Shown here: positions 1,452 to 37,437 of the stretch, piece by piece
Numbering within the stretch: position 1 is the first letter of the stretch
Layout of the letters: every line of letters starts with the position of its first letter
Assembly: GCA_937975975.1 (NCBI GenBank)
Contig: CALJTR010000011.1
Coordinates: 21,767-85,766, forward strand
Length of the DNA stretch: 64,000 nucleotides
From: an uncultured Candidatus Saccharibacteria bacterium
GTDB lineage: Bacteria; Patescibacteriota; Saccharimonadia; Saccharimonadales; Saccharimonadaceae
Reading direction: 5' to 3'
Position numbers and translations under genes: made by a program
Notes under the pieces: model-generated
Told to the model about the DNA's origin: nothing
Databases searched by the model: none
Seen by the model: only the letters and a program-made list of their open reading frames with translations

Positions 1452-2975
1452 TTATAGCATAGATTGCGATGCTGGCGTATCTGCTCGGGCAGTTTCTTCA
1501 AATTCTAAGCCAGATCCGGATGTATTGCTGCTAGCGGTTGCGGGCGTAGGAATTTGCGCCGGTGGCGCAGAAGAAGCTGAGAGTGGTAGCGCAGCGGCTA
1601 AAGGAGGTGTTGTCTGGTTTGTGACAGGTTGCTTCGTGCTGCTACCTCCTTGTGCGGGTGTGGCTGTCTGTGGTGCGATTGGTGCTGTGGTGCGCTGCGA
1701 TATTGGTGTTGATTGTACTGTGTATGATGGTGACGTTGACGTAGTTGTTGGCGCTGATGTCGGCTGCTGCGGTGGAACGGGAGATGTTTGCGCTTGAGAT
1801 ACGGGTGGCGTTGATGGTTGAGGCTGGGGTGTGATTGGTGTTGGCGATGTTACTGGCTGCGGCGCATTAGCAGCTATCGCGCTTGGCAGTGTCGGCTCTT
1901 GTTTGAACGAGTCTGAGTCTGGGCGATCGGTAACAGCGGACAGATCAACGAGAGGAGTGTTGTCCGGTGCTGTAAATGCCGTTGGTATTGCTTCAGGTGC
2001 GGGGCTGGCTGTAGTGGTTGTTGACGGCGGCGAAACGGGTGGTGCGATTGGTGTCGGCTGTGGAGTGGGTGTTGATACAGACGCAGGCTGCGGCGCAGGA
2101 ATAGCATCAATTGTCTGCGTACCGGCGAGTTCTTGACTCATGCGTGCGGTGATGTCGACGATGTCTTTTGAATTATCGTGCTCAAGTGGCTGAATAATAT
2201 GCCCTGATGAACCTGGGCGCGGCGTTGAAAATGGCGCGACCGGCTGCGGTAATGTTGACGGTTGCGGTGCGGTTGTCGCGGACGCGATAGGCATGGCTAA
2301 GCTAGCAGAACTTACCGGGACTGGTGCTGTGACGGGCGTTGGTGTAGTTGTGGTTGTTGACGGCGGCGAAACGGGTGGTGCGATTGGTGTCGGTGTCGGC
2401 TGAGTAATGATGCGTGGTTGCGATGATTGCGGCGCAGCCGATGGATTTGGGCGCGTCGGCAACGTGATTGATGATGTTGTGCCAGGTCGCGGTGGCGTCA
2501 TGGTGACAGATGTTGATTCTGTCCGCTCAGGTGTACTTATATCATAGATGTCGTCATCGGTGTCTTCAGAAGACACGAGTGGCGCTGGTCCGCTTGCGGT
2601 CGACGAATTATCCTCAAGCACTTCATGTACGGTACGGACGACATCTTCAATACCGACCTGTGATTTAACAAGGTAGCGGTCGGCACCAAGTGCTAGTCCG
2701 CGCCGGCGCTGCTCTTCATTTGACAGCGCGGTCATCATGATTACCTTAACGTTTTTGGTTTCGGTGGTGCTGCGCAAAATGTCGAGCATATCAAAACCGC
2801 TAATCTTTGGCATCATCACATCGCTCACGATGAGATCGGGGCGCTCTTTGATCGCCAGTGCAAGCGCTTCTTCGCCGTCGCCAGCAGACACAATGTCATA
2901 CCCCTCGGCGCCGAGCCGAACGTTATAGATTTCGCGCAAGCTCTTGTCGTCTTCTACTAATAATATTTTTGTCAT
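1452..2975 (-). CDS. Response regulator, receiver domain only, with a ~380-aa Pro/Thr/Ser-rich low-complexity C-terminal tail
   Basis: N-terminus 'ILLVEDDKSLREIY...DLIVSDVMMPKISGFDML' is a CheY-like receiver carrying the conserved Asp and Lys. The remainder is PTPxxAPPVSPPSTTTT-type repeats. No DNA-binding or other output domain. Confidence 0.7.
   Translation of the reverse strand: MTKILLVEDDKSLREIYNVRLGAEGYDIVSAGDGEEALALAIKERPDLIVSDVMMPKISGFDMLDILRSTTETKNVKVIMMTALSNEEQRRRGLALGADRYLVKSQVGIEDVVRTVHEVLEDNSSTASGPAPLVSSEDTDDDIYDISTPERTESTSVTMTPPRPGTTSSITLPTRPNPSAAPQSSQPRIITQPTPTPIAPPVSPPSTTTTTPTPVTAPVPVSSASLAMPIASATTAPQPSTLPQPVAPFSTPRPGSSGHIIQPLEHDNSKDIVDITARMSQELAGTQTIDAIPAPQPASVSTPTPQPTPIAPPVSPPSTTTTASPAPEAIPTAFTAPDNTPLVDLSAVTDRPDSDSFKQEPTLPSAIAANAPQPVTSPTPITPQPQPSTPPVSQAQTSPVPPQQPTSAPTTTSTSPSYTVQSTPISQRTTAPIAPQTATPAQGGSSTKQPVTNQTTPPLAAALPLSASSAPPAQIPTPATASSNTSGSGLEFEETARADTPASQSML
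2014..2393. repeat. 44-bp perfect direct repeat inside the response-regulator tail
   Basis: The 44-bp sequence gtggttgttgacggcggcgaaacgggtggtgcgattggtgtcgg occurs at 2014-2057 and again at 2350-2393, 336 bp apart. It encodes PTPIAPPVSPPSTTTT. Confidence 0.8.
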
Positions 2976-6906: not shown

Positions 6907-9693
6907 TTAATATCGCGGTGGCAATTCAATTGTGTAGTCTGTTGTGATGTTACCTGTCGTGTTGGAGATATAGTTTGCCGCCCAAAGGTATGCGTCGGCG
7001 CGCATGTTGATAATTTCGGCAGGGTCGTTGTAACCATCAACATCTCCCGCTCCGCGTCTGTCGCTGCCGAATGTCCGTCGCAATTGAAGCTCGCGCGCAA
7101 GCACGGGACCATTAATGCGCAGCTGCTGGTTGCATGTATTGGCATTGAGCCCGTTTGCATAATTAACGCCGCGCGCACGAATCGCCGTGAGGTTTGGCGT
7201 TTCGTCGACTTCGCATGTCGAGACGATGCCATCTTGCGTGTTGTTTTTGTTTGGCGTCGCCGCAAGCCACGCGTCCACCTGCGTGACATTATTTCGTATG
7301 ATGATGTTGCTTGCGACTATGACGAGCTGCGTGATATCGCTTGATTTATGGTAACTTGACGGAGCGTAGGTGATATTGCCGTCAATAATAACGGTTCCTG
7401 CGCTTTTGATGATAATTGATTTGCCTGCCCCTACTTCGCCGCTGATTTTTACGACGCGCGCTGTGGCGTTATAAACGCCGGATGCCATACCGCCAAGTGA
7501 AACATTACCGGCGTGATTGCGTACATTTGAGGTAAATTGTCCGCCAATGTTTGGTTGCGCCGGAATCGTTCCCCATTTTCCGTAGCCGCCGCCTGGTATG
7601 CCGGCGTTTGCAAACGATAAATTATTGCGGGTTGTTTCGGTTGAAGTGTTCGCGTTTGCTGCGCCCGCGCCGACGCCCGACAATCCGCCAGCTGATGCCG
7701 ACCGAATCACGCCGTTCTGCGGCGTCGTCATGCCGTATTCGCCCCAGCTGCCGAAGAGCTGTCCGCTGTCGGCGAGAGAGCTCATTGCGGTGATGATTGA
7801 CGATCGCGTGTATTGTGTGGCGGGTAGCCCGGTAACAACGCCGGAGTTTGATCCGACGCGAATACCATTACCCCAAACTTGTACGGATGGTTTTTTCGCA
7901 ATACGGTAACACTTTGGATATGCAACTCGGCGGTGCGTATCGCCGCCTGCACGTGTGCCCCAATTGTAATGGCGGATAGTCATGGTTCGACACACGAGAT
8001 CGCCGACTTGCGCGCCTGTCGTTTTCAGCTTTTCATTGTTCACTTGATTGCCGCCGCTACTTAATGCGGAGACAATAGCGCCTGCGAGCGTATTACAATC
8101 CGGCACATATGCGTGCAAGTCTGGATTGCCTTTCATCCATTCGCAGGCGTGAACAATTGAACCAAAATCAACTTCGGCGTAGCGCAGCGATCCGGAGCTC
8201 GTCTTGTTAAATATTTGATTAAAAATAGCTGTTACAGCACTCTCTCCGCCGGCTGATTGGATAACTGCGTTCGGGATTTTGAAGTCGTATGTGCCCCAAT
8301 CTACCCCAATATTACGCAAAACACCACCTTCGTTTTGGATGATACTCGGCGCATCGACTTGCGTGTCTTGATTGGTAGCGCCAATTGACGTGCTGCCGTC
8401 GCCGATTTTTGGAATGAGGTCAAAGGTTGATTTGACGACGAAGCAGGCTGGAACAGAGTTGTCCCACACATGATCTACAGAAGTGTTCCAATACCATGCA
8501 ACTTTTTGACATACATACCAGCCTATTTTGCTGCCATCACTTGGTATGCGCATGCCGAGACAATCATCGTCATAGCTGTATAGACTGAGCGCATCTGGTT
8601 TAATAAAAATGGTATCCCAACTGCGGTATTTTTGCCCCGAGCACTGTGTCTTGGCAGGAGGATCTGCACCTCGCCACACAACTATTTTTGTGTCGCTGCC
8701 ACAGCTGTTCCAGTTTTGGCGCTCACAATTTACAACCTCATGATAATTGCGGAAAAATGTGTTTTTGATATTTATTTTTAGCTCAAGTTCTTGTCTTCCG
8801 TATCCAGGTAATTCAACGTTGCGTAAGTTGCTCGAAAAGCGTGCGAGCTCACCTGAGCCTATTGTCGGCTGATCGGATGCATGGTTGATTGCACCCCATC
8901 CATCCGGCTGAGAATTCTTATAGTTTTTGTAAGATGTGTAGCCAGAACCAGATTTGGCTACAGCATACGTCTGTCCGTTAACATCCCATCCTTGCGGTTT
9001 GGCGCGCCGGCGCAGCCAGAAATTTGTGCCCTCAGTGTCGCAATTAACAGATTCTCCGCTATAGGTTTTTACGATATTTCCGAATTTTCGTGCCAAGCAG
9101 CTCGTCCCTCTGAATTTCACTCTTTCTGCGGGACCGCCAGGTTTAGCAACACCGTTAATATCAATTTCTAGCTCAAGCTGATCATTTGAGTTAATCCACC
9201 ACCATGCACCGTGTCCGCCACGATGGCCTCGATCAAAGAATATACTACCGTTAGAGTCTTTATGTCCATTCAAATTGAGTACGCGTACATTGCGTCCGCT
9301 CCCACCGATGGAAAATAATGAGTAGATGTGGGTGTCGCTTGAAAGCTGCGTGTTCCACGATCCGCGGATATTTGCACGCAGCTTAGTAGCATTCCATTCT
9401 ACCCAAATAGGATTATCTGGCGTCGATCCCGCCTCACTTAAATAGCTAGATCCTGGATTTGAGAGCCAGAACACAGCGCATGGGTACGGAATGAGTCTGC
9501 TGTCTCCACATGGATTACCACCCCAACTAGTTTCTTCTGCATGATTTCGACCCGAGCCCTTTCCGTTGCTACCTCGCCATGCACTTGCTGGTTGATGCGC
9601 GCATGCCGCCAGCACGAACACTACGCCTACCACCAATAAAATTGTCCGTGCAACATTTTTACCTAATATCTGGTTAAAATATGTACGTATCAC
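6907..9693 (-). CDS. Large secreted lipoprotein-like protein (928 aa), Trp/Cys-rich, with a C-terminal beta-helix-like region
   Basis: Signal peptide with lipobox 'VLAAC'. Many W, C, G and N residues. C-terminal repeats 'VVKISGEVGAGKSIIIKSAGTVIIDGNITY...NIIIRNNVTQVDAW' suggest a parallel beta-helix. GTG start overlaps the upstream stop (GTGA). Confidence 0.6.
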   Translation of the reverse strand: MIRTYFNQILGKNVARTILLVVGVVFVLAACAHQPASAWRGSNGKGSGRNHAEETSWGGNPCGDSRLIPYPCAVFWLSNPGSSYLSEAGSTPDNPIWVEWNATKLRANIRGSWNTQLSSDTHIYSLFSIGGSGRNVRVLNLNGHKDSNGSIFFDRGHRGGHGAWWWINSNDQLELEIDINGVAKPGGPAERVKFRGTSCLARKFGNIVKTYSGESVNCDTEGTNFWLRRRAKPQGWDVNGQTYAVAKSGSGYTSYKNYKNSQPDGWGAINHASDQPTIGSGELARFSSNLRNVELPGYGRQELELKINIKNTFFRNYHEVVNCERQNWNSCGSDTKIVVWRGADPPAKTQCSGQKYRSWDTIFIKPDALSLYSYDDDCLGMRIPSDGSKIGWYVCQKVAWYWNTSVDHVWDNSVPACFVVKSTFDLIPKIGDGSTSIGATNQDTQVDAPSIIQNEGGVLRNIGVDWGTYDFKIPNAVIQSAGGESAVTAIFNQIFNKTSSGSLRYAEVDFGSIVHACEWMKGNPDLHAYVPDCNTLAGAIVSALSSGGNQVNNEKLKTTGAQVGDLVCRTMTIRHYNWGTRAGGDTHRRVAYPKCYRIAKKPSVQVWGNGIRVGSNSGVVTGLPATQYTRSSIITAMSSLADSGQLFGSWGEYGMTTPQNGVIRSASAGGLSGVGAGAANANTSTETTRNNLSFANAGIPGGGYGKWGTIPAQPNIGGQFTSNVRNHAGNVSLGGMASGVYNATARVVKISGEVGAGKSIIIKSAGTVIIDGNITYAPSSYHKSSDITQLVIVASNIIIRNNVTQVDAWLAATPNKNNTQDGIVSTCEVDETPNLTAIRARGVNYANGLNANTCNQQLRINGPVLARELQLRRTFGSDRRGAGDVDGYNDPAEIINMRADAYLWAANYISNTTGNITTDYTIELPPRY

Positions 9694-10265
9694 TGTGGCT
9701 TACCTTGGTTGTTTTGAGTGACACCTCCGCGCAAAGCTTCCATTTGCTGCAAGCTTGTCATCGTTTGCAGCTTTGGGCTTGGATAAATACCTTTATCGGC
9801 AAGCGCGGCTATTTTATGGTATGTATTATTAAGCTCATCGGTTTGTGATCCGGTATTGATAAGTGCGAGATAATAGTAACGCATATACAGACACGAAGCA
9901 TCACTATCGCTGCCGTTTTTTGACGTAATAGTTGAAACAAGATCTTTTAATTTAGTGGTATCAGACAGCGATTCGTTGTACTTTGTAACAAGACTATCGT
10001 TGCAGATATTTTTTGATACGACTACTCGTTCGTTTGGTTGTTTAACGCCAGCATATAACCACCCTATAGCGAGCATACCTCCAAAACTGCCGATGATAAT
10101 AATTGCTATGACGATACGACTTTTTGCGCCTAGCGTAACCCCTGCTTTATTCTTGCTCATGCTTTTAGTATATCGCAAAACGAAGCTGCCGGCAATAATA
10201 AAACATCGCCGCAGTACGCGGCGTGTATTGATGAGGCTTATTATAATTTTCATTGTGAGTCTCAA
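9690..10265 (-). CDS. Small membrane-anchored hypothetical protein (probable start at 10160, MSKNK...)
   Basis: Single TM 'IVIAIIIIGSFGGMLAIGWLYAG' followed by a hydrophilic domain. Its stop overlaps the GTG start of the 928-aa gene, so the two are translationally coupled. Confidence 0.5.
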   Translation of the reverse strand: MRLTMKIIISLINTRRVLRRCFIIAGSFVLRYTKSMSKNKAGVTLGAKSRIVIAIIIIGSFGGMLAIGWLYAGVKQPNERVVVSKNICNDSLVTKYNESLSDTTKLKDLVSTITSKNGSDSDASCLYMRYYYLALINTGSQTDELNNTYHKIAALADKGIYPSPKLQTMTSLQQMEALRGGVTQNNQGKPQ

Positions 10266-10739
10266 TCAATATAAAATATGGAACTCCTTTTCGTGATTTA
10301 TTTTGCCATTCCATTTGCCGACAAACTCATCCTTGGCGAGAACTTTTGGCGGCGAATTGTCGGGTAGCAATACCAAGTATTTATCGCCCTGGATTTGCGC
10401 AAGAACGGCGAATTTTTATTCCTTAAACCCGACAATAACTGGTAACGGCAATTTGTTGAGCACCTTTACTTTGACGGTGGTGGCGTGCGCCTTGAACTTA
10501 AACGATTTTGCGACACGGAGCATATCCCCCTCATTCATACCTTCGCGCGGATCAATCGCCAGCGCATGTATAATCTGTTCTGGGTCTACAGGAATATTAT
10601 GTAAATGCGCGAGCGTGGTGAAGCAGTATATGCCAGGGTCTATTTTTGCGCAAGACATTCTTCCGTGCATGCCTGCTCGCCCCGAAACTACTGCCGTCTT
10701 GTCAGTGTCATCCAACGGTACATCTGCATTATGTTTCAC
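10266..10739 (-). pseudogene. C39-like peptidase domain (bacteriocin-processing peptidase fold), interrupted by an in-frame TAA; catalytic Cys/His apparently not conserved
   Basis: The upstream segment ends '...LRVAKSFKFKAHATTVKVKVLNKLPLPVIVGFKE*'. The same frame continues 'KFAVLAQIQGDKYLVLLPDNSPPKVLAKDEFVGKWNGKINHEKEFHILY*'. Together they match the C39 domain pattern (L..AA..GL.A......L..L.LP.I......H.VVL..........DP......L..EF...W.G). No ABC transporter domain follows. The stop codon lies near 10415-10417. Confidence 0.55.
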
Positions 10740-10847
10740 GCGCTAATTATCCTCACTTTACGGGAATTTTACTTATGCGAGCTTTATTGTATCAATAAGT
10801 AAAATATCTGGTATTAACTATAGTAAAGACGATTAACGGCTCAAAGC

Positions 10848-13800
10848 TTAAGCAGTTGGCGCAGTCCAGTATTGCGACACGATGGATTGCACCTGTAGCG
10901 GTCGCTCTAAGGTTGCTTGCTCCCAGGTCATACCGCTATCCTTTTCAAACGATGACATCGCCTGGATGAGGCTTTCGATTTGAGTAGACGAGATACTATA
11001 GCCGTCAGATGACTTCATTGTTTCTATCTTATATCTGCCATCGTCTCGTTTCCATGAATCTACTGATATAGAATCCTTTGAATTTTTATATCTAATCTTC
11101 ATATTATAGTAATCCTCGTAACCAAATATTATACTATCGCGCGTATATCCCAATAAGAATGTATCGACTGCCCCATTATAGTCCCTAACGTAGTCATTAC
11201 CGTGTCCGGGCTCAAACACATAAGTGTCGCTATCTGCGCCACCCCATAAACGATCGTTACCCGCCCCTCCTGTGATTAGATCAGCGCCATCTCCTCCATC
11301 TATAGAGTCATCACCTGCGCCTCCTTGCAAAGTGTCCATTCCAGCATCACCAATTAAAGTATCCTCTCCGTCATCACCATACAGCTCATCGTCATAGCGG
11401 CTTCCCGCCAATGAATCGTTACCTGCTAAACCTCGGAATACAACCCTATCTCCGTCGTATGAATATAGGCGATCTTGACCGTCCGTCCCACTACGATTAT
11501 GAAATTCATGGTAAATGTAGTCCCGACTCCAGACAGTGCCGTCCGCAAAAGATATTTCCTCCATCTCCCTGCCGGGCGTTCTCTCATAACCACGAGACGA
11601 AGACTCACCAAAGTGGTCTATGATCGTAATACTATCCTTACCGCCACAAATAGATAAAACTAGATTATAATCACCATTTTTTACCACCAAATCCATCGAC
11701 ACGTCATTAGGCTTTATGGTATCGCCAAACTGAATTTTATCAAACCCGCTATATTCGTAAATTGTGTCATGTCCATCGCCTCTATCAAACAGATAAGTAT
11801 CGTTCCCTACTTTCTTATAGCCAGACGATGTAAAAGTATCGTTCCCCGCACCTCCCGAGAGAATATTATTTCCACCGCTAGCTCCTATCGTGTCGTCACC
11901 GTCTCCTCCGTATAGCGTATCGTCACCATCTCTACCTATTAGACAATCTGCATCTGCGAGTCCGTAAAAAGTAAACCCATAATCGTCAAAGGCTGTTAGC
12001 GTATCTTTACCATCGGTACCATATGATACATGCGTCATTGCACGAATATCATTTTCATTCCAGACGGTGCCGTCCGCAAAAACTACCTTTTCGATCTTAT
12101 TACCAGCTCTTTCTTCATACCAAAACCATCCTTGATAGCCATAATAATTCTTTATGGTTACGCTGCCAGAATCACCGACATATAATACTAAATCGTAGTC
12201 TCGTATGCCACTATCGCCATAGAAACTTTCCACGCGTCTCAATTTTACATCAGCAGGTTTTATACCGCTACCAAAAATAAGCGTATCAGTACCGTCATAG
12301 TCTGTAATTTTGTCATGTCCGTCACCTAAATTGTATACATAGGTATCATCACCATAGTGATCATTGGACTCGTCATCTCCTATTCCGCCAACAAACAAAT
12401 CATCGCCAGATCCACCAGACAAGGAGTCGTTGCCCCTATTACCATAAAGCTTATCGTCCCCTTCCTCTCCCTCTAGGTAGTCGTCTCCCTCGCCGCCTAT
12501 TAGAACGTCATTACCTTCGTCGCCGATTAAAAAATCATTTCCTGAACCGCCAGATACAAAATCATCCCCTCCCTCTGCCTTCACATAGTCATTGCCGCTC
12601 CCGGCATATATTGTATCGCCCAACTCAGTTCCCTTTACTTTATCATCTCCACCGAAAGCTTCTACGTAAGCGGCTTTTTTGAGAACCAAACCTCCGTTTG
12701 TTCTCCAAGCCTCAATATCATCTTTCTCGTCAGTGCCTTTTATATATACATCACCGCCCAGCAGCAGCCCAATGCCCAACGCAACGGACTCGGATATTTT
12801 AGTAGTCGTCGCAATAGCGTCAGCTAATACACCCGCTGCAATACCCACAGCCTCGCTAGCACCCCGTATGATACTACCGCCAACTTGTGCAGCAACCTCT
12901 ATGGCAGCCGCCGTTACGGCAATTGTTATTTTTATTTCAGCCAGCGGGATATCAACGAAAATAAACTTTACGCCATTTGCCACAAAGCTTGACACATTTG
13001 CAGCGCCCTGCAAAGCATTCGCTTTCCAGGTTACGTTACTGCCAGCAACGGCTTCGGACAACTTACCATTTTCGAGCAGCGATCCGAGTTCATGTGTTGG
13101 CATTTTAGACCCTTGACTATCTTTACCGAATAGAGCTTTTTGAACCGCATCAGCGACTTCGGGCGGTATCGGCGTACTGCTGTTTGCACGAGCTTTATTG
13201 ACGATTTCCGCGATGAGATGCCTGCTCATTTCATCAACAGCTCCATCTTGTTTGCTCGTATCTTTCAGATATATCGTATCGCCAAGCTGAACTCCATATT
13301 CCCCGATAATGTCATTCTGGTTAACGTAATCCGTAATATATCCTTTGAATGATGCCGGATCAACATGCGGCATTGCTTGCCCGATACCAACCGCATCAAA
13401 TGTCACTGACTTGCCTGTCTTGTTTGTGATGTATGTCATGTATTGTGCAATCCCGCCGCCAAGGCTATGACCAGTGAAGCTGTAGCCGCTATAGTTGCCC
13501 TTGCCGATATTTTTCAGTGTTTTATCGAAAAAGGCAAAGGCGTCGTTAAACTGATTTGGCTTTCCAAGCGCATTGCCGCTAACAGCGAGCTGCGCATCTG
13601 TGATTGCATCTTGCAAGAATGTATAAATATCCTTGTTTGGCTCGGTACCGCGAAAAGCAAAAACAATCTCTTTCGTATCGGGATTCTGAAAGGCCGCGGC
13701 AGCAAAACCGGAGGTAGTGTTGGGTTGGAAGTTGATTAGTTTCCAACTCTGAATGGCATTAGCGCCTTCTTTAAGGGCAATAAGCTCAGGTTTATTGAGG

Positions 13801-13925
13801 TCGTCTTCTGGTATCGCTTTACCGCTCATAAGCTGCCCTACAGTCCAGCCTATATGATAATTTGAAAAATTTATATATGCCAAAGCACTGAGACTCATGT
13901 ACTCAATAGCGTTACATGTGGACAT
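10848..13925 (-). CDS. Lipase class 3 (alpha/beta hydrolase) domain protein with RTX nonapeptide repeats and three haemolysin-type Ca-binding-protein-related (HCBP) modules; no N-terminal signal peptide
   Basis: 'IVFAFRGTEP' and 'FTGHSLGGGIAQYM' are the lipase_3 signature. There are runs of GGxGxDxL-type repeats ('GGSGNDFLIGDEGNDVLIGGEGDDYLEGEEGDDKLYGNRGND'). Three modules have the form '...DTLIFGSGIKPADVKL...DLVLYVGDSGSVTIKNYYG...IEKVVFADGTVW'. Confidence 0.75.
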   Translation of the reverse strand: MSTCNAIEYMSLSALAYINFSNYHIGWTVGQLMSGKAIPEDDLNKPELIALKEGANAIQSWKLINFQPNTTSGFAAAAFQNPDTKEIVFAFRGTEPNKDIYTFLQDAITDAQLAVSGNALGKPNQFNDAFAFFDKTLKNIGKGNYSGYSFTGHSLGGGIAQYMTYITNKTGKSVTFDAVGIGQAMPHVDPASFKGYITDYVNQNDIIGEYGVQLGDTIYLKDTSKQDGAVDEMSRHLIAEIVNKARANSSTPIPPEVADAVQKALFGKDSQGSKMPTHELGSLLENGKLSEAVAGSNVTWKANALQGAANVSSFVANGVKFIFVDIPLAEIKITIAVTAAAIEVAAQVGGSIIRGASEAVGIAAGVLADAIATTTKISESVALGIGLLLGGDVYIKGTDEKDDIEAWRTNGGLVLKKAAYVEAFGGDDKVKGTELGDTIYAGSGNDYVKAEGGDDFVSGGSGNDFLIGDEGNDVLIGGEGDDYLEGEEGDDKLYGNRGNDSLSGGSGDDLFVGGIGDDESNDHYGDDTYVYNLGDGHDKITDYDGTDTLIFGSGIKPADVKLRRVESFYGDSGIRDYDLVLYVGDSGSVTIKNYYGYQGWFWYEERAGNKIEKVVFADGTVWNENDIRAMTHVSYGTDGKDTLTAFDDYGFTFYGLADADCLIGRDGDDTLYGGDGDDTIGASGGNNILSGGAGNDTFTSSGYKKVGNDTYLFDRGDGHDTIYEYSGFDKIQFGDTIKPNDVSMDLVVKNGDYNLVLSICGGKDSITIIDHFGESSSRGYERTPGREMEEISFADGTVWSRDYIYHEFHNRSGTDGQDRLYSYDGDRVVFRGLAGNDSLAGSRYDDELYGDDGEDTLIGDAGMDTLQGGAGDDSIDGGDGADLITGGAGNDRLWGGADSDTYVFEPGHGNDYVRDYNGAVDTFLLGYTRDSIIFGYEDYYNMKIRYKNSKDSISVDSWKRDDGRYKIETMKSSDGYSISSTQIESLIQAMSSFEKDSGMTWEQATLERPLQVQSIVSQYWTAPTA

Positions 13926-14681
13926 TTAACGATTCTCCTTTTCTCTATAACAAGTTGTGAAATCATCTGGTATTCTATCACCGTATTTACTATGAGCTGC
14001 TGAGCATAGATATTCTTTTCCTTCTATTGTCTTGGCTTCCATAACTATTGATAGACTTTTTATGTTTTGAGACTTTATATACTCAACTAGTTTCTTAGCA
14101 ACGTTAGCGTCAAGCAGCAATTTGCGCTTATCTACGTTTGTTGTATTTATAGCCACTTCATAATTGAACCCTTCTTCGTAAGTCTTTGCCTGATCATAAG
14201 TCGGAGTTGTCTTCGTGGCTGTTTTCACCAAATCTCCCGATAGTATTATTGTAGCCCTTATTTTGACATTCGGATCGTTACCGTAAATAGACGCCACAAC
14301 GGGAGCAAGTTCTTTATTTGCCTGTACACTCCATATAGCAGCGACATACTGGTCGCTACAACCGTAGCTGTTGCAGCCTACGTGGAACTTGAGATTCGGG
14401 TTAGATCTTGGATGTGCAAAGTCGGTACTCCACGTGCCTTCAACGGCAAAACCGCCATTTTTATATTTCGGCTCTGGTACAACAAATTGTTCGTTGTACT
14501 TCTTTTCGAGATAGGAGACCAGTTCCCGTTGTCTGCCGATAGTACTAACATTTAATAGAGAGTATACGACCGCACACACCATCGCTATACTTAATAAAAC
14601 AAGCGCAAGAACGCCAAGCCAAATCCCCCAAGAGCGATTACGCCTATTGGCTAATGCTGGCGGCATAGAGGCTTTTATCAT
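13926..14681 (-). CDS. Membrane-anchored hypothetical protein (251 aa), directly abutting the start of the lipase-RTX gene
   Basis: N-terminal TM 'WLGVLALVLLSIAMVCAVVY', Cys-containing extracytoplasmic domain, SD 'AGGGTGGT' upstream. Its stop is adjacent to the downstream start, consistent with an operon. Confidence 0.55.
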   Translation of the reverse strand: MIKASMPPALANRRNRSWGIWLGVLALVLLSIAMVCAVVYSLLNVSTIGRQRELVSYLEKKYNEQFVVPEPKYKNGGFAVEGTWSTDFAHPRSNPNLKFHVGCNSYGCSDQYVAAIWSVQANKELAPVVASIYGNDPNVKIRATIILSGDLVKTATKTTPTYDQAKTYEEGFNYEVAINTTNVDKRKLLLDANVAKKLVEYIKSQNIKSLSIVMEAKTIEGKEYLCSAAHSKYGDRIPDDFTTCYREKENR

Positions 14682-15014: not shown

Positions 15015-15089
15015 TGGTGATCGTACCGGGAATCGAACCCGGATTGTCAGGATGAGAACCTGATGTCCTAACCGTTAGACGATACGACC
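15015..15089 (-). tRNA. tRNA-Glu (anticodon CUC), CCA encoded
   Basis: Manual fold: acceptor GGTCGTA/TACGATC, D-arm GTCT-AACGGTTA-GGAC, anticodon stem TCAGG/CCTGA with loop TTCTCAT, T-arm CCGGG-TTCGATT-CCCGG, 3' ACCA. Confidence 0.75.
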
Positions 15090-35778: not shown

Positions 35779-37437
35779 ATGATTGCTGACGTCCATATTA
35801 CTGAGAAATCGTTTGGTCCTACGGTGTTGATGGCCGGAGTGAAGTTTGGCGTGGACGACGGCGAGAAAGTCGGGCTCATCGGGCGCAATGGCGCAGGAAA
35901 AACGACGCTATTTGGTATATTGACAGGCACGGATAAAGATTTCACTGGTAGCATAATTTTTCGCCGCGGCAGCGTGGTTGTGGCAACGGCGCAGGAACAT
36001 CACGGTGTCGGCGATATAACAGTGCTGGAGTACATCTTGAGCGGGCTGCCGGAGTACGCGCGATTGCGGCATATTCTGCATACTTATCCTGAGACGATGG
36101 GTAATGACATGGCGAAGATCGAAGAATATACGCAGGCGCTTGATCGGTTTGGGCAAAAAGGATTCTATCAAATTGAGGAGCTTGTGACCGAAGAGTTGAG
36201 GAATTTTCAGATGGACGGCGCGGCGGAACGTCCCCTCGCCTCGCTGAGCGGCGGGCAGAAGCGGCTGGTCGAGGTGGTGAAAATTATGCACGCGCAGGCG
36301 GATTTAGCACTGATAGACGAGCCGACGAACCACATGGATTACGTGGCGAAGAAGCAGTTTATTGATTGGATGAAAACATCAAAACAAGCGATGCTGGTTA
36401 TTACGCATGACCGCGATGTACTGAAAGAAGTTGACCGAATTATTGAGCTGAAGGATGGTGCGACGGTAAGCTTTGAAGGAAACTATGACGCGTATTTGAA
36501 ACATAATGCGTTCGCGACGGGCAACGCGATGAATGAATATGAGACGGTGGCGCGGCGGATTGCGAATCTAAAAGATAAGGTACTGCAGTTTCGGCGCATG
36601 AAAGAGCGGGCGCGCGACCCCGATACGATTAAACAATTCAAGCGGCGCGAAAATCAAGCGGCGGCAGAGCTGGCGGAGTTAGAAAAAATCGAAATGCCAA
36701 CCTTTTGGATTGACCGTGAGCATGTAGCGCAGTTGGATTACAAGGTTGCGGATCGTTACCAAAAATTCAAGGCGCGTAACATTCATTTGCGTATGAAGGA
36801 TGGTGCGATGCGCTCGCGGCGCAAACTCGTTGAGGCGCGCGATGTGGCGCTTGGATATGGTGATACGCTGCTGTTTGAGGGCGTGAATATTGATCTGCGC
36901 GAAGGCGAAGCGGTAGAGCTGCGTGGGCGCAACGGCGCGGGTAAGACGACGTTGATTCGGGCACTGCTAGCGGGTTCTACTCAGGATTCAAAAGCAGCTC
37001 CCGTACTTTACGGCGGTACGCTTGCCCTTGACCCGCATGTGCGCGTGGGTGTATATGAGCAGGAAATCGCGTCGACGTATCTGAATATGCCGTTACACGA
37101 TGCGATTGAGCAAATGTATATTGACCGCAAGCTGGCGATTGGCGAGACGAAAATCCGCCAGCTAATGGGTGATTATTTGTTTACTGATGCTGATGGCGCG
37201 ACGCCGCTTATTCGGTTGAGCGGCGGGCAGAAGGCGCGGTTTCAGATTATTAGCATGCTGGCAAATGATCCGCAGTTGCTAATTCTAGATGAACCAACGA
37301 ATCATTTGGATTTGCCGAGTATTGAAGAACTAGAGACGGCGCTTGAGCGCTACGCGGGTGCAATACTTTACGTTAGCCACGACGATTATTTTCGCCGGAA
37401 GATCGGCGGCGCGGTTGTACAGATTGGCGCAGTGTAG
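35779..37437 (+). CDS. ABC-F family ATPase (two tandem ABC domains, no TMD)
   Basis: Two Walker A motifs ('GRNGAGKTTL' appears twice). Two signature motifs ('LSGGQKRLVEV' and 'LSGGQKARFQI'). The inter-domain linker is typical of ABC-F translation factors. Confidence 0.8.
   Translation: MIADVHITEKSFGPTVLMAGVKFGVDDGEKVGLIGRNGAGKTTLFGILTGTDKDFTGSIIFRRGSVVVATAQEHHGVGDITVLEYILSGLPEYARLRHILHTYPETMGNDMAKIEEYTQALDRFGQKGFYQIEELVTEELRNFQMDGAAERPLASLSGGQKRLVEVVKIMHAQADLALIDEPTNHMDYVAKKQFIDWMKTSKQAMLVITHDRDVLKEVDRIIELKDGATVSFEGNYDAYLKHNAFATGNAMNEYETVARRIANLKDKVLQFRRMKERARDPDTIKQFKRRENQAAAELAELEKIEMPTFWIDREHVAQLDYKVADRYQKFKARNIHLRMKDGAMRSRRKLVEARDVALGYGDTLLFEGVNIDLREGEAVELRGRNGAGKTTLIRALLAGSTQDSKAAPVLYGGTLALDPHVRVGVYEQEIASTYLNMPLHDAIEQMYIDRKLAIGETKIRQLMGDYLFTDADGATPLIRLSGGQKARFQIISMLANDPQLLILDEPTNHLDLPSIEELETALERYAGAILYVSHDDYFRRKIGGAVVQIGAV

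Follow-up and report, generated by a model that had tools for sequence, protein, structure and literature searches.

A stretch of 64,000 nucleotides from an uncultured Candidatus Saccharibacteria bacterium (contig CALJTR010000011.1), hereafter called the window, carries a cluster of five genes on the minus strand (positions 6907-14681), which consists of two modules lying side by side. Module A (10299-14681) contains the genes of a membrane-anchored protein of 251 amino acids (aa) and of a 1025-aa lipase with repeats-in-toxin (RTX) sequences, followed by the remnant of a transporter gene; module B (6907-10160) contains the genes of a small membrane-anchored protein and of a secreted 928-aa protein. 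On balance, it appears probable that the two modules are independent and were brought together by a deletion, and that module A encodes an exported polymorphic lipase with an immunity-like partner. The most unusual feature of the locus is a hypervariable cassette located across the junction of the 251-aa and lipase genes, which was absent from the initial annotation, made from the sequence of the window.

The DNA of the window belongs to Saccharibacteria from human oral metagenomes; the closest named genomes are metagenome-assembled genomes (MAGs) of Candidatus Saccharibacteria, and the same cluster is present on more than 20 contigs. All five open reading frames (ORFs) of the initial annotation were found at 6907-14681, and both their coordinates and the Pfam matches of their products agree with it. 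Searches of the cluster proteins against Pfam and NCBIfam gave no family match in either database for the 251-, 191- and 928-aa proteins.

The RTX-lipase and its membrane-anchored partner

The 1025-aa RTX-lipase is encoded at 10848..13925 (minus strand) and was characterized by Pfam and NCBIfam matches and by a family alignment. Its N-terminal part (aa 1-300) is a class-3 lipase/phospholipase domain, from which a linker rich in Ala and Gly (aa ~300-430) leads to three units, each consisting of an RTX block and an HCBP_related domain (aa ~430-965); a conserved C-terminal region of ~60 aa ends the protein. Lipase_3 (PF01764) matches aa 88-207 with 25.6 bits against a gathering score of 22; HemolysinCabind matches 11 stretches (E=1e-52, 175.9 bits, cut-off 23), and HCBP_related three stretches (E=3e-25). 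The Pfam search thus returned the domains named in the initial annotation, including Peptidase_C39 (33.7 bits) in the neighbouring short ORF. Nine GGxGxD-like motifs are grouped in three blocks. NCBIfam model SA1320_fam gives a partial alignment with the lipase core (E=1e-12; its 47 bits lie below the cut-off of 230).

All 15 diverse members of the family alignment possess the GHSLGG nucleophile elbow, in the form FTGHSLGG (Ser154), as well as Asp205; the candidate for the catalytic histidine is located at ~278 ('THE' aligned to 'AHG'), in a less well aligned region. Among solved structures, the family profile matched fungal class-3 lipases (E=3.6e-5) and the lipase effector 7ubz of a type VI secretion system (T6SS; E=0.003); a single-sequence (phmmer) search of the lipase domain against solved structures gave nothing useful, and matches came from the profile search alone. 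Lipase activity is predicted, and the product of the gene would be a secreted calcium-dependent class-3 lipase/phospholipase with a catalytic N-terminus, RTX/HCBP beta-rolls and a C-terminal signal.

The N-terminus of the lipase, as read from the sequence, has no signal-like hydrophobic stretch. The conserved C-terminal ~60 residues (10851..11030, minus strand; family alignment) represent a candidate signal or domain for type I secretion. They carry the motif TQIExLIQAMxSF...GMxWxQA...QSIxSQYWTxPT and are kept to the last residue among members that are ~35% identical elsewhere, with or without adjoining HlyB and HlyD genes. Signals of type I secretion systems (T1SS) are not known to share a consensus sequence. 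The earlier assignment of a lipase_3/RTX/HCBP protein lacking a signal peptide was borne out, and its role as a secreted effector is plausible as well.

Homologues of the lipase number 1,464 at E<1e-10, most of them 1200-1740 aa long and having the same layout, with a phospholipase-like or Lipase_3 domain followed by RTX and HCBP repeats. In a scan with the lipase domain, using one genome per species, about 60 of the best 80 loci belonged to Saccharibacteria. In the initial annotation, the domain combination with these neighbours was not known as a described operon type; the architecture is not unique but belongs to a large family, core to oral Saccharibacteria. The lipase of the window is a short form (1025 against 1200-1740 aa) and lacks the SPM domain.

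The linker (12636-13025, lipase aa ~300-430) is rich in Ala, Gly and Ile, mildly hydrophobic, occupies the slot of the SPM domain (PF26745) of the longer members and is constrained, with a ratio of non-synonymous to synonymous substitution rates (dN/dS) of 0.25. A membrane-spanning or pore-forming region at aa 320-350 was considered and rejected: the Kyte-Doolittle values are borderline, and the region is not conserved in the family.

The 251-aa partner (13926..14681, minus strand) has an N-terminal transmembrane (TM) anchor and carries conserved Cys pairs; its domain at aa ~50-117 is conserved, and its C-terminal half (aa ~118-251) varies. Arg residues precede the anchor and, because these positive residues stand before the TM helix, the globular part of the protein is predicted to face outward. 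The TAA stop codon of the partner gene abuts the ATG of the lipase gene, with AAGGAG located 8-13 nt upstream of this ATG; the two genes are thus predicted to be translationally coupled. A partner homologue was found directly upstream of the lipase gene in 49 of 53 Saccharibacterial loci, in agreement with the earlier view of the 251-aa protein as a dedicated partner. Synteny in relatives accordingly links the lipase with this protein, but not with the module B pair.

In the cultured Firmicute Kroppenstedtia sanguinis, a lipase without RTX repeats also has the partner domain next to it (hhalign 95.4%, E=1.7e-8), which argues that the link between lipase and partner is independent of the export route. 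The partner is most likely a cognate immunity-like protein of the lipase, judging from its position, anchor and variability.

In Kroppenstedtia sanguinis DSM 45749 (L085:8792-13175), a 360-aa protein has a class-3 lipase core, no RTX repeats and, by eye, a TadE-like N-terminus. Its neighbours, likewise by eye, are genes of TadE-like proteins and of an M23 peptidase, followed by genes of two membrane proteins with the 251-like domain; this lipase/partner pair may be delivered by a Tad-type system.

The hypervariable cassette and displaced cassette copies

The hypervariable cassette of ~610 bp (13720..14330, minus strand) comprises the C-terminal half of the partner and the first ~68 residues of the lipase and so spans the gene junction. 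When the DNA of the window is compared with that of the related locus L011, the flanks are 94-100% identical and the interior of the cassette 24-66%, with sharp boundaries. Lipase variants P0006-P0010 are 24-44% identical at aa 1-50 and 90-100% identical elsewhere. Among close strains, the N-terminal half of the partner is 92-100% identical, while its C-terminal half is represented by at least five types with 22-60% identity; within the clade, each half of the cassette has at least five allelic types.

Two or more partner genes were found in 36 of the 53 loci, and orphan lipase N-termini in 19 of the 53. In relatives, the extra full-length partner genes, with TM anchors of their own, stand in tandem. 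Upstream copies in L009 (243+88 aa and 196+92 aa) and in L015 (165+66 aa and 232+103 aa) are each represented by a partner gene followed by a short ORF matching lipase residues ~1-70. The pairing within the cassette is kept across L009, L011 and L015, the main lipases of which are only 33-40% identical: the 243/88 copy of L009 is ~49% identical in each part to the 246-aa partner and the lipase N-terminus of L011, and the 196/92 copy of L009 is 65% and 52% identical to the 165/66 copy of L015.

The locus of the nearest species representative, L020, contains a 2.6-kb insert with two extra partner genes and a 106-aa orphan. In its variable half, the first partner copy shows 99-100% identity to the allele that L011 expresses, the third partner copy is 100% identical to allele P0134, and the orphan is 80% identical to the lipase N-terminus expressed in strain P0010; taken together, the silent copies of L020 match partner alleles P0135 and P0134 at 99-100%. 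The predicted ancestral order partner-partner-lipase was then seen in L100, the P0010 strain. A stretch of 116 nt within the orphan of L020 duplicates, with 95.7% identity, the conserved lipase segment immediately past the variable part; this stretch would represent a ready recombination anchor.

These features of the cassette appear to be the signature of a polymorphic effector/immunity locus, arranged as a mirror image of the usual layout because the secretion signal of the lipase is C-terminal. According to the proposed mechanism, the partner would bind and neutralise the lipase at the membrane of the producer itself. The C-terminal half of the partner and the ~68 N-terminal residues of the lipase would be swapped as one cassette by recombination between the conserved flanks, and displaced cassettes would accumulate upstream in the form of additional partner genes and of orphan N-termini of the lipase.

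The same cassette could be read as antigenic or receptor variation driven by host bacteria, phage or human antibodies, with the partner serving as a surface anchor, foldase or secretion accessory. We regard this as rather unlikely, although several features speak in its favour: the TM anchor and N-terminal domain of the partner are highly conserved, with the distal half alone varying, and arrays of silent cassettes are typical of antigenic variation too. The directionality of T1SS and the retention modules of RTX adhesins are established, and the extreme N-terminus of the lipase, the only part of it that varies, exits last in T1SS and could stay attached. On the other side stand the tandem full-length partners with their own TM anchors, as in immunity arrays, and the presence of the partner domain beside a non-RTX lipase in a Firmicute; moreover, lipase-specific foldases and anchors are normally single and conserved.

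Among known systems, the staphylococcal 'reverse' lipase toxins TslA and TslM of the T7SS, or type VII secretion system, are accompanied by membrane-anchored immunity proteins in variable tandem arrays, which are recombination hot-spots (PMC10730906, PMC13560087). TslA/TslM with TilA/TilM share with the locus an N-terminal phospholipase, a C-terminal secretion domain, partner proteins that are anchored in the membrane and have an extracellular domain, and non-identical tandem partner genes, and appear to be its closest experimentally studied parallel. The differences concern the route, which here is of T1SS/RTX and not of T7SS/LXG-like type; the partner, which does not belong to DUF576/DUF1433 (no Pfam match); and the variation, here confined to the C-terminal half of the partner and the first ~68 residues of the lipase. 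An LXG-like C-terminal domain is absent from the lipase, which has RTX/HCBP repeats instead, and no WXG100-type neighbour was found in the window.

As in the CdiA, Rhs and MafB systems, a variable end is joined to a conserved delivery region, the cognate gene is linked, displaced orphans retain a conserved recombination anchor, and silent copies correspond to alleles expressed in other strains. The locus differs from these systems in that the variable part is N-terminal, the partner and the orphans are located upstream, and the variation is limited to a sub-domain of the toxin. The Lipocone preprint notes further N-terminal toxins in fusion with RTX repeats. The Tle/Tli pairs of T6SS likewise combine a lipase effector with an adjacent extracytoplasmic immunity-type protein, and 7ubz gave the weak profile match mentioned above; in contrast to them, the locus has no T6SS, another domain architecture and a monoderm-like envelope.

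The type I exporter in relatives and its remnant in the window

In relatives, the lipase gene is followed by the gene of a 705-735-aa ATP-binding cassette (ABC) transporter with a C39-like domain and then by the gene of a ~448-aa membrane fusion protein (MFP). A complete C39-ABC and MFP pair lies beside the lipase gene of L009, L010 and L014; among the 53 loci, 13 (plus 6 edge-cut) have it. The ABC transporter of relatives aligns end-to-end with E. coli HlyB (E=6e-222; bacteriocin exporters 1e-107) and scores 936-944 bits with TIGR01846 (cut-off 725.55). Their MFP matches HlyD (E=1e-52) and Serratia LipC (5nen; E=2e-31), scoring 327-332 bits with TIGR01843 (cut-off 208.65). The presence of HlyB and HlyD beside the lipase gives a straightforward answer to the question of how an RTX protein lacking a signal peptide is exported in these relatives: the HlyB-type transporter, with an inactive C39-like substrate-binding domain, and the HlyD-type adaptor would pump the unfolded lipase with the C-terminus first.

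No gene of the TolC type or OEP family was detected among the called genes within 10 kb in L009, L010 and L014. Saccharibacteria are regarded as lacking an outer membrane, and a sortase is encoded in the window; the locus indicates that a HlyB/HlyD system can be maintained in a lineage without an outer membrane.

RTX proteins and T1SS are typical of diderms, and a recent horizontal transfer that brought in both the RTX gene and the fragment of hlyB from an oral Gram-negative bacterium would fit the close similarity of the relatives' ABC transporter to E. coli HlyB, as well as the low GC content at third codon positions (GC3) of the cluster, 0.38-0.49 against 0.56-0.64 in the flanking core genes. 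Such a recent transfer is highly improbable, since the combination of lipase-RTX and partner occurs almost only in Saccharibacteria, in very diverged lineages and at a syntenic site, and since an RTX protein was found to be conserved in nearly all oral TM7 genomes in an earlier pangenome study. An ancient acquisition of hlyBD by the phylum is plausible.

Lipases and polyurethane esterases of family I.3 (LipA, TliA, PueA and PueB of Pseudomonas and Serratia), the genes of which adjoin those of an ABC transporter, an MFP and an outer membrane protein (OMP), resemble the locus in an N-terminal lipase with a GHSLG-type elbow, C-terminal RTX repeats, the absence of a Sec signal and, here in relatives, exporter genes beside that of the substrate. 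The catalytic domain of the locus is, in contrast, of class 3 (fungal type): no solved family I.3 lipase was matched by phmmer or profile search, and the PueAB model NF050046 aligns to the RTX region only (aa 637-770). Furthermore, the locus has no TolC-type gene nearby, possesses a cognate membrane partner and cassette polymorphism, and its exporter was lost in the window. With E. coli hlyCABD it shares the order of small upstream gene, RTX protein, HlyB and HlyD (in relatives) and a C39-like domain without the catalytic Cys; the partner, however, is not a HlyC acyltransferase (no Pfam match; membrane-anchored and outward-facing), the effector is a lipase and not a pore-former, and TolC is absent. 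The system combines known kinds, namely, RTX lipases secreted by T1SS and loci of the polymorphic effector/immunity type.

In the window, the exporter is represented by a remnant of the HlyB-type ABC transporter (10299..10739, minus strand), recognized by tblastn, by a match to 3ZUA and by stop codons read in the sequence. The 107-aa stub ORF covers only positions 12-80 of the 133 positions of the Peptidase_C39 profile. In the tblastn search, the ABC transporter of relatives aligned to the window from 10640 to 10299 (residues 4-117, 57-59% identity), across an in-frame TAA (10416-10418), after which homology ends; a TGA follows at 10266-10268. The stub matches the C39-like domain of HlyB (3ZUA, E=1e-12) and has Pro at the position of HlyB Tyr9, which is the position of the catalytic Cys of true C39 peptidases. 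The DPG of the stub and of relatives, aligned to 'DYG' of HlyB, places the domain in the inactive C39-like type. The degenerate C39-like domain of the initial annotation is thus indeed C39-like, but it is what is left of a truncated exporter and not a partner in its own right.

The truncation after residue 117 is common to the window, L011, L020 and L100, that is, shared by the whole species-level clade, and is therefore old; the sites of the stop codons of the window are intact in L020 and L100. No trace of the TM and ATPase domains of HlyB or of hlyD was found in the 64-kb window by tblastn. The only ABC ATPase encoded there is an ABC-F type protein with two ATPase domains (35779-37437), which is not an exporter. 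The export route, puzzling at the time of the initial annotation, is largely explained by the relatives, in which HlyB and HlyD adjoin the lipase; the genome of the window has lost this pair.

Three lineage pairs showed a non-synonymous to synonymous ratio of 0.20-0.31 for the stub, with a synonymous excess at p=0.001-0.006; between the window and L011, the changes in the stub are too few for an estimate of selection. For a C39-like domain standing alone or tethered to the membrane, a function is possible, for example, in substrate binding. If so, the selected domain could be a cytoplasmic holder for the unfolded RTX substrate, acting with a transporter encoded elsewhere.

In L020:13175-14242 (corresponding to window 10160-10739), a 45-aa linker connects the stub in frame with the small membrane protein, so that a single open frame of 355 codons results; in L100, a frameshift parts the stub from the small gene.

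Selection on the other genes of module A was estimated mainly against L011, the RTX-lipase gene of which is ~96% identical in DNA and 93% in protein. The lipase gene has a dN/dS value of 0.15, its catalytic domain taken separately one of 0.04, and the conserved part of the 251-aa gene one of 0.12; against L100, the lipase gene has 0.13, and outside the catalytic domain values of 0.13-0.19 were obtained in two strain pairs already sharing the hlyB truncation. By these ratios, lipase and partner are still under purifying selection, and the lipase looks functional and retains its presumed export signal.

These values bear on the view that module A is a decaying relic, the lipase of which, deprived of its exporter, has ceased to be secreted or to be of use, with loss of the locus to follow. 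The truncation of hlyB, the loss of hlyD and the two nonsense mutations in the stub would agree with decay, as would the short form of the lipase without the SPM domain and the absence of the whole of module A from the same site in the related lineage L018/L019. A relic is nevertheless unlikely: more than 20 contigs and several diverged strains carry an intact lipase ORF, both the lipase domain and the rest of the protein have low dN/dS, the C-terminal signal is conserved, and the cassette is still exchanged among strains of the clade.

Since lipase and partner are intact and constrained, production of the lipase probably continues, with export through a transporter encoded elsewhere, which would be the likeliest route for the genome of the window. 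Of the two paralogous lipase-RTX loci (L024 and L050) in the MAG SRR9217414-mag-bin.22, just one has HlyB/HlyD beside it, which suggests that a single pump can serve several substrates and makes service in trans plausible. The loss of the pump with the effector kept in the genome of the window represents a natural experiment on export in trans.

Several points weigh against an exported polymorphic lipase with an immunity-like partner. The window contains one partner gene and no orphan cassette. Variation limited to ~68 lipase residues, with the N-terminal half of the partner conserved, is atypical for toxin/immunity pairs, and adjacent DNA co-varies by linkage alone, so that co-variation is no proof of interaction. 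The structural model of the 251-aa protein is of modest confidence and its fold matches were uninformative; the immunity role is a putative one. About 34 of the 53 loci have no HlyB/HlyD within 10 kb; no second exporter, nor a paralogue of any cluster gene, was found within the 64-kb window, so continued export is an assumption. Finally, purifying selection on the stub is not expected of a plain remnant, and the account given here may miss a role of the C39-like domain.

In the literature, no description of this system in Saccharibacteria was found; its genes are mentioned in two papers, at annotation level only, as 'RTX protein'. Saccharibacteria, like other Patescibacteria, lead an attached life on host bacteria and have no lipid synthesis. 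A tentative possibility is that HlyB/HlyD without TolC puts a polymorphic phospholipase on the membranes of hosts or rivals, while arrays of anchored immunity proteins protect the producer and specificity is re-assorted by switching of the N-terminal cassette. If this is true, the locus would be a weapon between competing epibionts as well as a candidate for the missing route to host lipids. A near-universal secreted phospholipase with its exporter, partner and polymorphism is a testable candidate for host attack, lipid scavenging and competition among epibionts. HlyB/HlyD without an outer membrane, N-terminal cassette switching and a C39-like stub selected after loss of the pump are unusual, and the locus suggests that the logic of polymorphic toxins can run in mirror image when the secretion signal is C-terminal.

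Module B and the chromosomal context

The first gene of module B (9690..10160, minus strand) encodes a small membrane-anchored protein, listed as 191 or 187 aa. The start at the conserved MSKNK (10160), aligned to the 156-aa homologue of L017 and the 147-aa homologue of L019, gives a length of ~156 aa instead of 191 aa. The gene overlaps by 4 nt that of the 928-aa protein (6907..9693, minus strand), the second gene of the module. The 928-aa protein is secreted and, as noted before, rich in Cys and Trp; many of these residues are invariant. The lipobox-like LAAC is present in this allele only, whereas homologues have ordinary signal peptides. Its AlphaFold model (pLDDT 44) is too poor for a fold search, and the beta-helix label is thus unconfirmed. 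Only 11 close clusters were found, among which the C-terminal ELPPRY is invariant, while its C-terminal 370-540 aa fall into an unannotated family that numbers 1,843 representatives at 50% clustering. The dN/dS values of the two genes against L011 are 0.08-0.09, with 0.09 for the 928-aa gene, and that of the small gene is 0.08-0.11 overall.

The family of the C-terminal domain of the 928-aa protein (window 6907-8300, ~460 aa) has no Pfam model, and its members align to the last residue.

Module B is an unrelated surface pair, separate from module A. In L018 and L019, it occupies the chromosomal site of the window in the absence of module A, the shared order being response regulator, tRNA-Glu, small protein, 921-aa protein, abhydrolase and PAS kinase. 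Among ~60 lipase loci, it accompanies the lipase in L020 only; its association with the lipase locus is confined to this species-level clade. In a consensus scan, the interval separating the stub from the small gene showed a terminator-like GC-rich hairpin (10207..10223, minus strand) and, after it, a promoter-like site (10195->10167). As the total of terminator-like sites does not exceed the shuffled expectation, the hairpin is weak evidence, and the two elements represent a possible boundary between transcription units.

This arrangement bears on the initial annotation, in which all five genes were taken for one dedicated effector system; in that case, the C39-like, small membrane and 928-aa proteins would export or position the lipase by an undescribed route. 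Co-directional and tightly packed, the five genes are all kept in the window, L011, L020 and L100, and the in-frame fusion of stub and small protein in L020, together with purifying selection on the stub, could hint at a function linking the modules. A single system is nonetheless distinctly improbable, given that the small protein and the 928-aa protein pair occurs without an RTX gene in L017, L018 and L019 and is absent from the other lipase loci (present in 1 of ~60), and that the usual neighbours of the lipase family are HlyB and HlyD. The two stops in the stub of the window, the frameshift in L100 and the terminator-like hairpin with the promoter-like site between the modules also argue against it.

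In L017:436-12697, a 60%-identical module B pair is located directly after a set of genes for TrbC, TrbL, PrgI, TraC-like, VirB4-like, CHAP and TraG-like proteins and a Bro-N gene; this hints that module B may travel or work with this type IV secretion/conjugation-like system. No relatives of module B were found on viral contigs.

The tRNA-Glu(CUC) gene (15015..15089, minus strand; ARAGORN) forms the upstream boundary of module A and precedes the array also in L009, L020, L022 and L100. A second tRNA gene, tRNA-Glu(UUC), follows hlyD in L009, and tRNA-Glu(UUC) stands directly before module B in L019. The ancestral order would thus have been tRNA-Glu(CUC), module A with hlyBD, tRNA-Glu(UUC) and module B. 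In the lineage of the window, one deletion, starting at hlyB codon 118 and ending immediately upstream of the leader of module B, would have joined the stub to this leader, with the two stop codons arising later; in the L019 lineage, module A would have been lost.

Module A sits in several different chromosomal contexts. An island integrated at a tRNA gene was considered and rejected, as no att-like direct repeats flanking the cluster were found and the association with tRNA genes is seen in some lineages only. In L048, L051, L055 and L062, a tRNA gene (Pro, Lys or Glu-UUC) is located ~200-300 nt upstream of the first 251-like gene; most loci have none.

In L004:1-1111, a fragment of an FtsX-like permease gene, and not the histidine kinase/response regulator pair, lies beyond tRNA-Glu(CUC) in a contig otherwise 99.95% identical to the window, which is either a rearrangement breakpoint at the tRNA gene or an assembly join. 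In L011:15277-16890 (window 1452-2975), the gene of the 507-aa response regulator located by the PAS kinase is replaced by two short ORFs on the opposite strand; the response regulator gene of the window has a GC3 of 0.46, unusually low for its neighbourhood.

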